Shown here one piece after another: positions 7,320-33,391 of a DNA stretch of 35,920 bases. The stretch is from Bacilli bacterium (lineage in GTDB: Bacteria; Bacillota_I; Bacilli_A; RF39; UBA660), in assembly GCA_036660495.1 (NCBI GenBank), contig JAVXAN010000003.1, positions 1 to 35,920 of the forward strand, given 5' to 3'. The position numbers and the translations under genes were made by a program. How positions within the stretch are numbered: position 1 is the stretch's first letter; the number at the start of each line of letters is the position of its first letter. The notes beneath the pieces are model-generated. The model did no database searches. It was not told the DNA's origin and saw only the letters and a list, made by a program, of their open reading frames with translations.

Positions 7320-7781
7320 TTAAAAATCTCTAACGCCACTATATCCATCCGTTTCATACGATTTACAGCTTATAAATCCTTTAAAGTCATATTTTTTGTT
7401 ATTATACCTTATCCCAACATACCCATTACAATATGAATTTGCCTTAGGATCAGAAATTTTTGCTTTACCATCAATAAGTTTTATACCTTTAAGGTATTCA
7501 TTATTATATAAAAATTCTAAATTAGCATCAGTTAGCCAAACCCCTGAAGATGTTTTTGCCCTTCCTAACATTTTACCTTCATCTGACTCAGGGAAAATTG
7601 TTCCATGGCTATATATTGCTGTTCCCATATCAAATAATTGCTTTTCTAAAATTTTATATTCTTCTTTTCTTGCTGATTTAAGACTACTATTTATAGAAAT
7701 AGTTGAAATTATCATTATAATTGATAAAACAACAATAACTGCAATAAGTTCAATTAGTGTGAAACCATTGTTTTTTTTCAT
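7320..7781 (-). CDS. type IV prepilin / pseudopilin-like protein
   Basis: Class III signal peptide MKKNNG|FTLIE with Glu5, a hydrophobic helix, and two C-terminal Cys (C118, C139). Confidence 0.9.
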   Translation of the reverse strand: MKKNNGFTLIELIAVIVVLSIIMIISTISINSSLKSARKEEYKILEKQLFDMGTAIYSHGTIFPESDEGKMLGRAKTSSGVWLTDANLEFLYNNEYLKGIKLIDGKAKISDPKANSYCNGYVGIRYNNKKYDFKGFISCKSYETDGYSGVRDF

Positions 7782-11256: not shown

Positions 11257-12003
11257 TCACTCTCCCGTCAATATCTGATAACCATCATTAGTAACTAAAA
11301 CCGTATGCTCGAAATGAGCTGAAGGCTTGTTATCTAAAGTTGTTATTGTCCAACCATTATCTTCTATTACTATTTCTTCAGTTCCTAAATTTAACATTGG
11401 TTCAATTGCAATAACCATTCCAGCTCTTAATACTGGTCCAGTATCTTTTGAACCATAATTTGGAACATCAGGATCTTCATGAAGGTGATTTCCAACCCCA
11501 TGACCAACTAGTTCTTTAACAACACCCAAATTATGTGCTGTTGCATAAATTTCTACTGCATTACCAATATCACCTATTCGGTTACCTGGCTTTACCATAT
11601 TTATACCCTCAAACAAAGCTTTTTTTGTATGCTCAAGTAAAAACTCTTTTTCATCATTAACTTCGCCTACTGGGTATGTCCACGCAGAGTCTCCGTGATA
11701 TCCTTTATACTCTGCACCAATATCTATTGATATTATATCACCTTTTTTTAATTTTCGTTCTGTTGGAAATCCATGAACAACTTCATCATTAATTGAAATG
11801 CAAGTTGCATAAGGAAATCCATCATATCCTTTAAAGGATGGTTTTGCGCCTTTGCTTAAAATAAATTTTTCTGCCTCAGCATCAATTGATAGTGAACTCA
11901 CCCCTGGTTTTATCATGCTTTTAACATGTTGATGAGTTTGATAAACAATTTTACCAGCTTCAACCATTAAACTTATTTCTCGTTCTGATTTAATGCTAAT
12001 CAT
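11257..12003 (-). CDS. map: type I methionyl aminopeptidase
   Basis: SINDEVVHG, GHGVG, IEPM, SAHFEHT. The start is set at ATG 12003 (MISIKS). Confidence 0.97.
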   Translation of the reverse strand: MISIKSEREISLMVEAGKIVYQTHQHVKSMIKPGVSSLSIDAEAEKFILSKGAKPSFKGYDGFPYATCISINDEVVHGFPTERKLKKGDIISIDIGAEYKGYHGDSAWTYPVGEVNDEKEFLLEHTKKALFEGINMVKPGNRIGDIGNAVEIYATAHNLGVVKELVGHGVGNHLHEDPDVPNYGSKDTGPVLRAGMVIAIEPMLNLGTEEIVIEDNGWTITTLDNKPSAHFEHTVLVTNDGYQILTGE

Positions 12004-12658
12004 AGTTATCACCATTAATAGCGTTCTCTAGCTTTTCAAAAACAATTTCAATGTTTTCGGAGGCTTTTATGGTCTTAAGAACTCCACTTTCCTTATAATA
12101 ATCATATAAAGGCATGGTTTTCTCTAAAAACCCATTAAAACGTTTATAAAAGGTTTCTTCATTATCATCAATTCTTGATGTTAACTCTAAAGCACAATCA
12201 TCACAAATACCCTCTTTTTTTGGTTTCGTTTGTAAATATTTATTATATATCCTGTTACACTTAGGACAAGTCATTCTTCCAGTTACCCTTTTTAATAACT
12301 CTTTCTTATCAACGTCAAGATATATAACAACACCAATATCTCTTCCAATATTACTTAATAACTCGTCATATTTTAGAGCTTGAGTTACCGTTCTTGGAAA
12401 ACCATCTAAAATATATCCTGTATCATAGCCGGGCTTGTTTATCTTATTCAAAATTAAATCAATAATTATGTCATCCGAAACAAACTTTCCCACTTTCATT
12501 AAATTTTCAGCTGCTTTTCCTATTTCTGTATTATTTTGAATTTGTTCTCTTAACAAATCGCCTGTTGATATATGCTTATAATCATACTTCTTCATTAATA
12601 ATTCAGATAAAGTACCCTTGCCTGCGGCAGGTGGTGCTAAAAATATTATGTTTTTCAT
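11996..12658 (-). CDS. adk: adenylate kinase with Zn-lid
   Basis: PPAAGKGT, HISTGDLLR, LDGFPR, CPKC...CDDC lid. Confidence 0.97.
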   Translation of the reverse strand: MKNIIFLAPPAAGKGTLSELLMKKYDYKHISTGDLLREQIQNNTEIGKAAENLMKVGKFVSDDIIIDLILNKINKPGYDTGYILDGFPRTVTQALKYDELLSNIGRDIGVVIYLDVDKKELLKRVTGRMTCPKCNRIYNKYLQTKPKKEGICDDCALELTSRIDDNEETFYKRFNGFLEKTMPLYDYYKESGVLKTIKASENIEIVFEKLENAINGDNYD

Positions 12659-29715: not shown

Positions 29716-30900
29716 CTATTTATTATTTATTACCGCTATTGCTGGTAACGTTCTACCTTCTATATATTCTAAAGATGCTCCACCACCAGTTGATATGTGA
29801 AAAAACTTATCTTTATAGCCAAACTTTATTACTGCTCCTGCTAAGTCTCCTCCACCAATTATTACTTTAGCTTTGCTTTTATATAACATACTGCATAATT
29901 CTTTAGTTCCACGTTCAAAATTTTTAAATTCGCATACTCCTACTGGTCCGTTCCAAAAAACTAGTTTTGAATTTTTAATATATGATTCAAATAATTTAAT
30001 CGTGTTATTACCAATATCTAAAATCATTGAATTATTTGGTACTTCCTCAACTAAACAGTACTTAGCTTCTTCCTTATTATTAAAACTTGATGAAACTAAA
30101 GCATCTACTGGTAACACTATCTTCTTTGGATATTTTTTTAGCAAGTTTTGACAATATGAGATACTTGATATATCACACACAGAATTTTTAATATCATAGT
30201 CTTTAGCAGCTAAAAACGTGTTAGCAATTCCTCCTGCTACTAATAAATAATCAACTTTATTTATTAAATTATCAATAACCTTTATTTTATCAGAAACTTT
30301 TGAACCACCCATTATTACTACGTATGGATGCATCTTAACCTTTAAAACCTCATTAAGAGCTTCCATTTCTTTTTCAACAAGAAATCCAATTCCAGATGGA
30401 ATGTTGCTAGCAATGCCTACGTTCGACGCATGGCTACGGTGTGCCGTGCCAAAAGCATCATTAATAAAAACGTCTCCTAAACTAGCCCAATATTTACCCA
30501 ACTGTTGATCATTACCACTTTCTTTATTTCCATCAACATCCTCAAATCTAGTGTTTTCAATTAAAATAATTTCACCCGGTTCTAATAAACGAATGTTTTC
30601 TTCGAGAACCGTTCCACGTGTATCATTAATAAACTTAACTGGTTTTTCTAATAACTTGCTTAGTCTATCAGCAACAACTAATAATGAACCGTTTTTTTTA
30701 TCATCATTACATTTTATCTTACCTAAGTGTGATAATAAAATTATCTTTGCTTTTTTACTAACAGCATATCTAATTGTTGGCAAACTTTCTATTATACGGT
30801 TATCATCAGTTATTTTACCATTAGACATTGGTAAGTTAAAATCACATCTAATAATAATAACTTTATTTTTTATATCAAAATCTCTAATTGTCTTTTTCAT
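29716..30900 (-). CDS. pgk: phosphoglycerate kinase
   Basis: RCDFNLP, LSHLG, ENTRF, NDAFGTAHR, GGSKVSDK, WNGP, STGGGAS. The start is ATG 30900 or 30903 behind AGGAGG. Confidence 0.98.
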   Translation of the reverse strand: MKKTIRDFDIKNKVIIIRCDFNLPMSNGKITDDNRIIESLPTIRYAVSKKAKIILLSHLGKIKCNDDKKNGSLLVVADRLSKLLEKPVKFINDTRGTVLEENIRLLEPGEIILIENTRFEDVDGNKESGNDQQLGKYWASLGDVFINDAFGTAHRSHASNVGIASNIPSGIGFLVEKEMEALNEVLKVKMHPYVVIMGGSKVSDKIKVIDNLINKVDYLLVAGGIANTFLAAKDYDIKNSVCDISSISYCQNLLKKYPKKIVLPVDALVSSSFNNKEEAKYCLVEEVPNNSMILDIGNNTIKLFESYIKNSKLVFWNGPVGVCEFKNFERGTKELCSMLYKSKAKVIIGGGDLAGAVIKFGYKDKFFHISTGGGASLEYIEGRTLPAIAVINNK

Positions 30901-30956
30901 CATTAGCCTCCTTTTATTATTATAACATGATATCAAAAATAGGAAAACATAATTTC

Positions 30957-32240
30957 CTATTTTACATTAACAACTATCGTTGCCGTTTTACCGTCCGCAG
31001 CTGAAGCGGTAATCACCGCTTTACCCCTTGCCCTTGCTGTAATAGTACCATTTGATACTGATGCCACTGCTTCGTTTGAACTACCCCATGATATTGATTT
31101 GTTAGTGGCATTTGATGGGGTTATCGATGCAAATATAACTTTTGTATTACCAACTTCAAGCTCAACTGAATTAGGGGTTAAAGTGAATCCAGTTACTGGT
31201 ATATAGGTTGATTTTACTATTACCGTTCTTCTAGCACTAGTTTGATTTTGCCATGCATCTTTGACAGTATAAGTAACATAATAAGTTCCAGCTACTGCAG
31301 TGTTTACTGAACTATTAACTGACACACTTGAATTTATATTTTTACCCGTTACGTCAGTAGCTGAAAATCCTCCATCAAAATAAGATTGACCAACATTTAA
31401 AATCGTAGGATTATCTCCTAAAATTGTTATCCTTGGTGGGGTTGTTACTTTAGTTGTTGTAGTTACCGTTATTTTTCTTGTTGTAGTTCTAGTTGGTTGA
31501 TTAGTCCTTGTTGTTATTGGTCTATTAGTTATACCAGTTGTTGTAACAATAACTGGTATAGTAGTTACACCAGGAAGAACTATTACCTTTCTTTTTACCC
31601 TGGCTTTATTACCTGCTTTATCAGAAACTCGATATACGATTTCATACATTCCAGAAGTTAAAGTGTCAACTTTTCCTTCCGTAATTATTTTTGACGTTAT
31701 ATTTCCATCCTTGTTATCAATTGCAACAGCACCCTGATCTTTATATTCTGAGGCAAAAGCTACGTTCATTTCTGTTAACCCGTTAATAGTAATAACTGGG
31801 GCAACCTTATCTTTTGCCGACGTAACTTTATGAGTAGTTACTTTATTATCATTACTAATATAACCTGGGGTTTTATAATTTTTTCCACAATTTAAATATG
31901 CAGTATAATTTTCCTTTTCTAACTTTTGGGCAATAACGTATCCAGCGCAAATTTTGGTTACTTTACTTTCAACAATACCTCCACCATTTTTTTCTAATAA
32001 TGACGATAACTTAATGGTAACTTGTTCTGTAGTTAAAGTTATGTTGTTTTGAGATAAATATATATAACTTTCTTCAACCATTCTGTTTTCAAGATTTTTA
32101 AAATCAGCTGCCGTGTATTTTGGCTTGCTATTTTGTACGCTTTTAATAATAATCATTATAATAACAATTAATATTAAAACAACTAAAATGGTAAGGATAA
32201 GCATACCTCTAGTTATTTGAAACTTTTTCTTTTCTTCCAT
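30957..32240 (-). CDS. membrane-anchored modular surface protein: pilin-like head, two DUF5011-type Ig-like domains, Thr-rich linker, Big_2-like domain
   Basis: N-terminal hydrophobic helix. Two repeats: DKVAPVITING...YRVSDKAGN and PPRITILG...YTVKDAWQN. The C-terminal PSNATNKSISWGSSNEAVASV pattern is Big_2-like. Confidence 0.82.
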   Translation of the reverse strand: MEEKKKFQITRGMLILTILVVLILIVIIMIIIKSVQNSKPKYTAADFKNLENRMVEESYIYLSQNNITLTTEQVTIKLSSLLEKNGGGIVESKVTKICAGYVIAQKLEKENYTAYLNCGKNYKTPGYISNDNKVTTHKVTSAKDKVAPVITINGLTEMNVAFASEYKDQGAVAIDNKDGNITSKIITEGKVDTLTSGMYEIVYRVSDKAGNKARVKRKVIVLPGVTTIPVIVTTTGITNRPITTRTNQPTRTTTRKITVTTTTKVTTPPRITILGDNPTILNVGQSYFDGGFSATDVTGKNINSSVSVNSSVNTAVAGTYYVTYTVKDAWQNQTSARRTVIVKSTYIPVTGFTLTPNSVELEVGNTKVIFASITPSNATNKSISWGSSNEAVASVSNGTITARARGKAVITASAADGKTATIVVNVK

Positions 32241-32300
32241 TTTTATCACCCCAAATTTTACATTTATATTATAACATATTTTAATAATATTTTAAAATAT

Positions 32301-32325
32301 AAAAACAGCGCTAATTTTAGCGCTG
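32301..32325 (-). terminator. terminator after gap
   Basis: CAGCGCTA-N4-TAGCGCTG followed by TTTTT on the minus strand. Confidence 0.8.
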
Positions 32326-32332
32326 AAATATT

Positions 32333-33343
32333 CTACTTCAAATTTGAAAAATATTTAGCTGTTCTTACCATTTGAGCACTATACCCCATTTCGTTATCGT
32401 ACCATGCTATTATTTTAACAAGCTGCTTACCATTAACTTCTATAACATTAGTAGAAAGTCCGTCTACTAGTGCACCAAGGGTTGATCCGATTATATCACT
32501 TGAAACAATCGGATCTTCAGTATACGCAATTGTCTCTGAAACATTTTCCTTAAACATATTATTAATATCTGACTTTGATACTTTTTTCTTTAGTTCAATA
32601 ACTAGGTCAATTACAGATCCCGTAGTAACTGGAACCCTCATTGCATTACCCTCTAACTTTCCTTTTAACTCAGGAATAACCAGCCCAATAGCACTTGCTG
32701 CTCCTGTTGTAGCTGGAACAATGTTTGCTGATGCTGCTCTTCCTCTTCTTGAAAGATAACCCTTTTTATGCGCTACATCTAAAGTTGACTGATCATTTGT
32801 ATAAGCATGGATAGTTGTCATGTAACCTTTTTCAACGCCAAAGTTTTTACATAGTAAATCCATAACTGGAGCCAAACAATTAGTTGTACAACTTGCAGCA
32901 CTAATTACTTTTTCTTCACCGGTTAAAACGTTATTATTAACATTATACACAATTGTTTTTAAGTCTCCTTGTGCTGGAGCTGAAATTATTACTTTTTTAG
33001 CACCAGCTTTGACATGTGCTTCTGCTTTTTCTAAAGAAGTAAAAAAACCAGTACATTCAAAAACAATATCTATTTTTTCGCTTTTCCAAGGTAAGTTTAT
33101 TGGGTCTAATTCCGAGTAAATTCTTATTTTTCGGCCACCAATAATAATATTTTCATCATCACTTGATATTTCATCTTTTCTATACACACGATGACTTGTA
33201 TCATACTTTAACAAATAAGCTAATTGATCAGCATTAGTTAAATCATTTATTGCAATAACTTCAAAATTTGGATCTTCCTCCATAATTCTAAAAACCAATC
33301 TTCCTATTCTCCCAAAGCCATTAATTGCTACTCTTATTGCCAT
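32333..33343 (-). CDS. gap: type I glyceraldehyde-3-phosphate dehydrogenase
   Basis: INGFGRIGR, ASCTTNCL, HAYT, WYDNE. The start is set at ATG 33343 (MAIRVAING). Confidence 0.98.
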   Translation of the reverse strand: MAIRVAINGFGRIGRLVFRIMEEDPNFEVIAINDLTNADQLAYLLKYDTSHRVYRKDEISSDDENIIIGGRKIRIYSELDPINLPWKSEKIDIVFECTGFFTSLEKAEAHVKAGAKKVIISAPAQGDLKTIVYNVNNNVLTGEEKVISAASCTTNCLAPVMDLLCKNFGVEKGYMTTIHAYTNDQSTLDVAHKKGYLSRRGRAASANIVPATTGAASAIGLVIPELKGKLEGNAMRVPVTTGSVIDLVIELKKKVSKSDINNMFKENVSETIAYTEDPIVSSDIIGSTLGALVDGLSTNVIEVNGKQLVKIIAWYDNEMGYSAQMVRTAKYFSNLK

Positions 33344-33391
33344 GTTATCATCTCCTATTTTTATTTTATCATTTATGTGTTTTATAAACAA

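Follow-up and report, generated by a model that had tools for sequence, protein, structure and literature searches.

Excerpts of PMC8179133 describe modular pilins as small pilin modules onto which adhesin-type domains are grafted via short linkers, PilB and PilC of S. sanguinis being examples. According to the same excerpts, these two proteins carry a canonical class III signal (IPR012902, with Gly-1 and Glu5), are cut by PilD and are encoded in the pilus locus (PMC8179133). The DNA examined here, referred to below as the window, is a stretch of 35,920 nucleotides (positions 1 to 35,920 of contig JAVXAN010000003.1, assembly GCA_036660495.1) from a Bacilli bacterium placed by GTDB in RF39, UBA660. 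Between the gap and pgk genes of the window lies a gene for a protein, here called the surface protein, whose layout recalls PilB with its vWA domain and PilC with its lectin domain: an N-terminal pilin-type module bears grafted domains, and the host is a monoderm. Unlike PilB and PilC, the surface protein has no N_methyl match, no Glu5, a Gly that is not conserved, and a place in the gap-pgk locus. Compared with the modular-pilin definition in these excerpts (PMC8179133), it has the extra domains and lacks the N-terminal motif. In our opinion, it is best read as a pilin-derived, membrane-anchored adhesin that most likely arose from a decayed modular pilin, a reading to which we assign a probability of roughly 0.6.

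Closer relatives are found within the same bacterial family. The canonical modular prepilins of loci L051, L092 and L093 (genome G183), L094 (G188), L012 (G005) and L058 (G069), as well as the protein P0036, belong to the same head family; they start with GFTLxE and match N_methyl, whereas the N-terminus of the surface protein appears decayed. The L051 protein, whose head is without the cysteines discussed below, matches surface-protein residues 13-223 with 32% identity (E 1.8e-18). With respect to fold, the type II secretion minor pseudopilins GspI, EpsI and XcpV and C. difficile PilJ share with the surface-protein head the arrangement of one helix on a small antiparallel sheet; these proteins have canonical signals, their sequence similarity to the head is undetectable, and the structural Z scores stay below 8. 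In the Glu5-less minor pilins GspK and ComGG, the Gly-1 cleavage site is retained, and their genes belong to pilus or pseudopilus operons. The surface protein lacks Glu5 as they do; its Gly, in contrast, is replaceable, and its locus is unrelated. A search confined to one literature library found no paper pairing DUF5011 with a pilin; Dataset S1 of PMC8179133, which compiles modular pilin architectures, may already list IPR012902 together with DUF5011.

The pilin-type head and its relatives

The surface protein consists of a short charged tail, a hydrophobic helix, a linker, the head and an outer part with Ig-like domains (Table 1; residue numbers are counted from a GTG codon that gives 430 residues, and subtracting 3 gives the numbering from the ATG start). 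An earlier note, made from the letters of the window, had read the N-terminus as MEEKKKFQITRG followed by MLILT, that is, a charged leader with a Gly and a hydrophobic helix without Glu5, and had counted three Ig-like domains. Translation of the minus strand agrees with the first statement, and Pfam bears out the second, with two copies of PF16403 (Bact_surface_Ig-like, formerly DUF5011) and one Big_2 domain; the scores, 132.3 bits for PF16403 and 53.3 bits for Big_2, exceed the curated cut-offs of 27 and 22.8. The head comprises a helix beginning DFKNLENRMVEESYIY, a small sheet, and a β-hairpin closed by C101 and C121 (CAGYV...YLNCGKNYKTPGY), which are the sole cysteines of the protein. No significant Pfam match was found in residues 1-140, and NCBIfam gave none either. 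In the database ortholog P0023, Val replaces the first head cysteine (..DTVKGYVNVY..), so that the presumed disulfide of the head is not universal.

The first line of evidence for the origin of the head comes from P0002, a canonical prepilin encoded in the same window (Table 1). Its only cysteines, C118 and C139, lie in a C-terminal hairpin (residues 102-148) that belongs to the head family of the surface protein. A regular expression for the strict two-Cys motif finds 2 of the 2269 open reading frames (ORFs) of the 768-kb genome, namely the surface protein and P0002. A single BLASTP comparison aligns surface-protein residues 92-130 with P0002 residues 109-147 (14/40 identical, E 7e-4), spanning just the Cys-Cys hairpin. 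A hidden Markov model (HMM) of 40 heads, from which P0002 was excluded, was run against the 2269 ORFs and found three proteins: the surface protein (E 5e-30), a protein of contig C35 (1.2e-19) and P0002 (2.6e-9). The P0002 score comes from the hairpin alone; its helix piece reaches 2.4 bits (independent E-value 19), and this match gains credibility only from its agreement with the consensus Y..LE....A..Y of other canonical prepilins. The earlier observation that the two heads are alike is thus confirmed, with the reservation that in P0002 the helix, taken by itself, is not significant; the accompanying statement that the Cys pairs are the sole cysteines of both proteins is accurate.

The second line of evidence is provided by profile-profile comparison. 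Aligned by hhalign, 23 ortholog heads and the heads of 5 canonical prepilins match with a probability of 98.7 (E 4.3e-16) over 88 columns, helix included; comparison of the ortholog heads with 16 heads of small G↓[WF][GS]xxE prepilin-like proteins gives E 1.2e-19 (here and below, the arrow marks the cleavage site or the position corresponding to it). On these sequence grounds, the homology of the surface-protein head to pilin heads is, in our judgment, solid.

The third line of evidence is the predicted fold. AlphaFold2, run on residues 1-150 with 18 orthologs in the alignment, gives a model with a mean predicted local distance difference test score (pLDDT) of 83, and of about 95 in the head. 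In the model, helices span residues 14-38 and 47-67, with a break between them at 39-46. There follow strand 77-80, short helices, and a hairpin of strands 102-109 and 113-120, at the ends of which C101 and C121 are located. The model of P0002 (pLDDT 73.5) has one unbroken helix, residues 9-58. In an exhaustive VIA-align comparison of surface-protein residues 42-132 with 48,161 chains, the four best rows are GspI (3ci0_I; Z 5.3, root-mean-square deviation 3.2, 65 residues aligned), EpsI (2ret_A; Z 5.2), PilJ (4ixj_B; Z 5.0) and XcpV (5bw0_B; Z 4.8). PilA4 (6xxd_A; Z 4.5) and a Thermus competence pilin (6qvf_A; Z 4.4) are also matched, pilins or pseudopilins make up 8 of the 11 best rows, and lower down stand PilE (4noa_A; Z 3.9) and the S. 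sanguinis PilB module (7b7p_A; Z 3.8, and 3.5 with P0002). The top four for the P0002 model are the same four chains (Z 4.4-3.9). Because pilins are enriched, the top four are identical for both models and the sequences are homologous, the head probably has a pilin-type fold.

It is very improbable that the two heads are alike by chance or through convergence of short Cys-flanked hairpins. The profile match of P0002 (E 2.6e-9 among 2269 ORFs), the profile-profile alignment (E 4.3e-16, 88 columns including the helix), the intermediates of every kind in relatives and the identical top four structural matches all argue for common descent, even though the direct BLASTP alignment covers 40 residues only (E 7e-4), the helix part of P0002 is insignificant alone, the VIA-align Z scores are low, and Foldseek, queried with the model of residues 1-150, returned from the PDB nothing at or below E 0.001 (best E 0.31, to unrelated chains). 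The pilin rows emerged only in the exhaustive VIA-align comparison.

The head constitutes an uncharacterized domain family without a Pfam, NCBIfam or PDB sequence match. In an exhaustive search by phmmer with residues 36-140 against 1.84 billion representative proteins, 27 proteins were found at E up to 0.001; 24 were retrieved, the other three being P0003 (the query's own cluster), P0018 and P0028. The last two (2162 and 4165 residues) match over 31 residues only and are not counted as family members. Searches of related genomes yielded further members. Among PDB sequences, the best match of the head profile is to a histone (E 0.73), and the ESM Atlas returned only unnamed Bacillota clusters of ~130 residues. 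Word-based searches tell little about the range of the family: with the head region, 1 of 199 candidates was recovered, the surface protein itself; with P0002, eight other prepilins, matching only via the N-terminal motif; and with a 29-head alignment among longer proteins, only 3 proteins in 7998 scored candidates. Nine loci in unrelated phyla, obtained with the surface protein as query, match its Ig-like domains and were not used.

For P0002 itself, 200 genomes of the bacterial family contain no close ortholog. Its matches outside its own genome, 27 in 25 of the 200, all cover the C-terminal hairpin only (best E 3.1e-7). The P0002 gene is solitary, flanked by genes for ECF transporters and for a short-chain dehydrogenase.

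Within the bacterial family, four kinds of N-terminus precede the head. The first is a canonical signal, G/A↓F[TS]LxE. The second, seen in proteins of ~150 residues, is a G↓[WF][GS]xx signal in which Glu5 may be present or absent. The third is the short plain anchor (MKK..IIWG...) of ~120-residue proteins. The fourth is a long-tailed anchor; in proteins of this kind, the head precedes a DUF6273-type domain or, as in the surface protein, Ig-like domains. A census of 63 distinct head-bearing frames, a sample biased by the queries, contains 3 with a canonical signal, 12 of the G↓[WF][GS]xx kind with Glu5 and 13 without it, 24 with a short plain anchor and 11 with a long plain anchor. Canonical GFTLxE prepilins combine this head with various outer modules, namely GLUG repeats (L012), Laminin_G_3 (L058 and P0036, the latter with two tandem heads) and PF16403 (L051, whose gene adjoins those of PilD and PilC). 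PF16403-like modules occur in further canonical prepilins, of genomes G183 and G188, and in plain-anchored proteins of G017 and G015. The bacterial family does contain modular pilins with this head, some of them with DUF5011.

Two further observations concern the head family. The C35 protein, its third member in this genome (C35:425-1516, plus strand, locus L081; 363 residues), consists of a short tail and a plain anchor, followed by the head and by a C-terminal domain bearing the motif NYVMFNKQLWRIIKVD. Pfam finds no domain in it; its relatives P0038 and P0039 match DUF6273 (PF19789). In relatives, a conserved three-gene cassette lies directly upstream of rpsJ of the S10 ribosomal operon (L077, G023:C1, 8025-9149; L078, G018:C7, 7661-8800). 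It encodes a membrane protein of 86-90 residues, a G↓WG-type prepilin-like head protein of ~145 residues and a plain-anchored head protein of ~120 residues. The two head genes are met again as a pair in many loci; the three-gene cassette was not found in the genome of the surface protein.

Cleavable signal or membrane anchor

According to excerpts of PMC4471445, the leader of a type IV pilin is hydrophilic, 6-26 residues long, and ends in an invariant Gly that is "absolutely critical" for processing. The surface protein has no match to PF07963 (N_methyl) or TIGR02532 at E up to 1. Nineteen database orthologs, some of them truncated, have the same architecture of tail, helix, head, two PF16403 domains and Big_2. 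The residue aligned with the cleavage site is Gly in 16 of them and Trp in 3; the +1 residue is Met in 14, Lys in 3, and Ile and Asn in one each; Glu at +5 is found in none (0/19), and the surface protein has Thr there. In the ortholog of genome G071, the helix is not preceded by a Gly (KFWTKTR↓IIII, the aligned residue being Arg), and those of G168 and G418 read KFWTKGK↓II, with Lys at this position. Arg14, unlike the adjacent Gly, is invariant among the 19.

Conservation is distributed unevenly along the orthologs. Mean pairwise identity peaks at 0.61 in the segment KKFxITRG. It is 0.37-0.49 in the head, 0.36 in the hydrophobic helix and lowest, 0.23, in the linker. In real pilins, the first part of the helix, alpha1-N, is the conserved assembly interface; there, 7 canonical prepilins of this genome share an identity of 0.59 in spite of their unrelated heads. 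Judging by these alignments, the helix of the surface-protein orthologs is simply hydrophobic, unlike pilin alpha1-N. The distance from Gly to the head helix ranges from 31 to 40 residues across orthologs, and the linker varies in length and sequence, often containing Pro. A continuous alpha1 helix of ~50 residues running into the head is not seen in the predicted model of the surface protein, which breaks at residues 39-46.

In most orthologs (P0012, P0014-P0017, P0019-P0021, L041 and L096), the cytoplasmic tail is acidic and longer, and contains the conserved motif Y.G[ST]DVEYE; the surface protein is without this tail and has only 12 residues before the helix. The orthologs of genus g145 read KKGFKLTRG and KNGFRLTRG, which look like decayed versions of KKGFTLIEL. 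Together with P0017 and P0024, these two sequences suggest an alternative register, in which KKGF-x-L-T-R would be aligned to KKGF-T-L-I-E, as opposed to one in which the Gly of TRG is the ancestral cleavage site.

The position of the gene is conserved as well. A 201-genome sample of the family contains four ortholog-bearing genomes (G145, G073, G071 and G168); a 401-genome sample confirmed the same four and added G327, G273 and G418. The order gap-X-pgk is retained in six other genomes of four genera (G145, G327, G073, G273, G071 and G168). An extra small head-only gene occupies the gap-pgk slot of G071 and G168, and apparently of G418 too. In G018, gap adjoins pgk with no insert.

The machinery needed for a type IV filament is present in the genome of the surface protein. 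Contig C17 encodes PilB (PF00437, E 8e-129), PilD (PF01478, 7.2e-17; positions 11436-12215) and PilC (PF00482, 5.2e-26), as well as two prepilin-like proteins (G↓ITIIE and G↓FFLAE); a second ATPase gene and a platform gene are located on contig C14. Nine prepilin ORFs are spread over seven contigs. When the four ortholog-bearing genomes G145, G073, G071 and G168 were searched, each proved to contain a PilD-family gene, and only in G145 and G073 did a T2SSE ATPase score above the cut-off. G071 (94% complete) yielded no such ATPase, and G168 (90% complete) only a sub-threshold match of 17.6 bits; the ortholog is kept in both. This persistence of orthologs where no assembly ATPase was found is counted against cleavage and assembly. 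G071 and G168 thus have a prepilin-peptidase-family gene, and both retain head-family genes between gap and pgk.

Several observations weigh against an uncleaved anchor and point instead to a genuine, non-canonical minor or tip pilin, which PilD would cut after TRG and which, as a subunit without Glu5, would prime or cap the filament and display the three Ig-like domains. Gly12 (numbered from the ATG) follows an 11-residue charged leader and precedes exactly 21 hydrophobic residues, MLILTILVVLILIVIIMIIII. TRG is kept in 16 of the 19 database orthologs and in those of G145, G327, G073 and G273, at least one of which duplicates a database entry. The spacing from Gly to the helix aromatic is 35 residues in the surface protein and 36 in P0002, as had been noted earlier and as counting confirms. 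Glu5, according to excerpts of PMC4471445, is dispensable for processing and needed for homopolymers, and pilins lacking it can enter beside normal ones; excerpts of PMC8179133 hold that modular pilins are thought to be located at the tip. The head is homologous to pilin heads and GspI-like in fold, GspI being a tip pseudopilin; canonical relatives share both the head and DUF5011; and PilB, PilC and PilD are all encoded in the genome. Moreover, the three TRG genera searched (its own, g145 and g73) all have an assembly ATPase, and the two genomes in which none was found are two of the three that have lost the Gly, the third, G418, not having been searched for the ATPase. The Gly could perhaps be under selection where a pilus exists, a pattern to which few and related lineages lend little weight. 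The helix break at residues 39-46 is itself a prediction, with a pLDDT of 74-79 in that stretch, and every VIA-align Z score is below 8, a range that can reflect a common arrangement only.

We nevertheless favor an uncleaved membrane anchor, because N_methyl matches and Glu5 are absent, the Gly is replaceable, the helix is unconserved and predicted to break before the head, and the gene holds its gap-X-pgk position. A pilin cleaved by PilD would have to accommodate the lack of a TIGR02532 match, the replacement of Gly by Trp in 3 of the 19 orthologs, the Lys or Asn that 4 of the 19 have at +1, a helix sequence that, unlike alpha1-N of real pilins, is not conserved, and a variable, Pro-containing linker. 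Nor would long acidic tails with conserved [ST]DVEYE, found in most orthologs together with KKFxITR, be expected in a leader that is discarded, or a gene between gap and pgk, away from pilus genes, in a pilus subunit. For these reasons, we consider a cleaved tip pilin unlikely, though it is the strongest competitor of the anchored adhesin.

Cleavage of another type, by signal peptidase I after an ordinary Sec signal peptide, with the protein then shed or retained in the wall in some other way, appears improbable. The positively charged N-terminus and following hydrophobic stretch would suit this fate, and LPXTG is absent from the C-terminus, though the genome has two sortase genes. On the other hand, 21 hydrophobic residues are long for a cleaved signal, inspection of the orthologs revealed no conserved small-x-small site after the stretch, and AlphaFold gives one helix of membrane length.

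The earlier note had proposed a type IV filament system with dispersed subunits, in which the surface protein would be a tip or adhesin subunit. The first part agrees with the C17 machinery and the nine scattered prepilin ORFs. As to the second, the pilin-type head stands, by homology and by fold, whereas a cleaved and assembled subunit finds no support in the N_methyl search, Glu5, the Gly, the helix or the locus. The note had also named in advance what would speak against it, namely a head without pilin-like fold or significant profile alignment, or a genome without peptidase and ATPase; pilin-like fold matches (Z 4.8-5.3), a significant alignment, and both a peptidase and an ATPase were found.

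Reading frame, expression and other pilus genes

The ORF finder's own call for the gene is 30957-32249, with a GTG start at 32249 and 430 residues. Upstream of the gene, the sequence reads GGGGTGA, 6 nt, and ATG at 32240; since the GTG lies inside this ribosome-binding site, the ATG at 32240 is taken as the real start. The gene is flanked by gap (32333-33391) and pgk (29716-30936), and tpi and gpmI follow pgk.

Table 1. Coordinates of features in the window
Feature	Position	Strand	Basis
Whole surface-protein gene, 427 aa from ATG at 32240	30957..32240	minus	ORF list and translation
Tail MEEKKKFQITRG, 12 residues, charged, predicted cytoplasmic	32205..32240	minus	translation; topology putative
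Hydrophobic helix MLILT...IIII, 21 residues, Thr at +5	32142..32204	minus	AlphaFold helix 14-38; read as uncleaved signal anchor
Polar Pro-containing linker KSVQNSKPKY between anchor and head	32112..32141	minus	predicted helix break aa 39-46
Pilin-type head, aa 47-131	31857..32111	minus	pLDDT ~95; HMM E 5e-30
First PF16403 domain, aa 153-224	31578..31793	minus	Pfam
Thr-rich spacer, aa 225-273	31431..31577	minus	read from translation
Second PF16403 domain, aa 274-345	31215..31430	minus	Pfam, E 2.5e-20
Big_2 Ig-like domain, aa 351-425	30975..31199	minus	Pfam, E 2.8e-14
Promoter-like TTTAAA-17-TATAAT with TG extension (extended -10), directly upstream of the surface-protein gene	32268..32296	minus	consensus match only
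Terminator-like hairpin and T run, directly after gap	32306..32325	minus	sequence
Canonical prepilin P0002, 153 aa, MKKNNG↓FTLIELIAV	7320..7781	minus	N_methyl E 4.1e-8; TIGR02532 E 9.4e-7

The terminator-like hairpin and the promoter-like site (32268-32325, minus strand) divide the glycolytic cluster. No terminator-like site was found between the surface-protein gene and pgk, which starts ~20 nt past it. Given its own promoter-like site and the direct run into pgk, the surface-protein gene probably shares constitutive expression with the glycolytic genes, as part of a putative common transcript, and pgk and the genes downstream may depend on the promoter of the inserted gene.

Other pilus genes of this genome deserve brief mention. 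The PilC-type platform gene of C17 (12224-14152, minus strand, locus L079) encodes 642 residues, with two T2SSF repeats and a long N-terminal extension; PilC proteins usually have ~400 residues. Two long canonical prepilins are encoded at C15:868-2403 (plus strand; 511 residues, leucine-rich-type repeats) and C32:5165-6850 (plus strand; 561 residues, 16 cysteines). Their N-terminal signals are GFTLIE and GFTLVE, respectively, and both look like true modular pilins. The presence of penicillin-binding proteins and two sortases indicates that the organism has a wall.

Proposed history and significance

The surface protein would descend from a modular type IV pilin in which a class III signal was followed by a small head with two cysteines and by Ig-like modules grafted onto it. 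Descent from such a pilin is suggested by relatives that carry this head, together with DUF5011 and other modules, behind canonical GFTLxE signals. In the simplest history, the class III signature decayed into a signal anchor in the lineage of the surface protein. The short basic N-terminus would remain in the cytoplasm, and the 21-residue hydrophobic helix would act as an uncleaved signal anchor, N-in/C-out, followed by a flexible polar linker. The head would then lie at the membrane's outer surface, with a β-hairpin that is presumably stapled by the disulfide, and Thr-rich spacers would extend the two DUF5011 domains and the Big_2 domain outward through the wall, for putative ligand binding.

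The definition of modular pilins, a class already known, rests on their canonical N-terminal motif; the surface protein shows the reverse side of such tinkering with modules. Within one bacterial family, one head is combined with four kinds of N-terminus and with the outer modules DUF5011, GLUG, Laminin_G_3 and DUF6273. This natural series lends itself to the question of which N-terminal features determine whether an adhesin is polymerized into a pilus or retained on the membrane. The head domain deserves a family model of its own. As for annotation, "DUF5011 protein" conceals the pilin ancestry, and "pilin" overstates it.

It is doubtful, in our opinion, that the surface protein functions as a pilus subunit, with KKFxITRG↓M as a cryptic class III signal that lacks Glu5 and is missed by N_methyl models. 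Were this the case, censuses of modular pilins based on IPR012902 would miss a class of tip adhesins. A small-genome, gut-type lineage of Bacillota would then switch the display of its Ig-domain adhesins between pili and membrane through changes in a few N-terminal residues, and the g145 orthologs with KKGFKLTRG and KNGFRLTRG would look like intermediates of that pilus-membrane switch.

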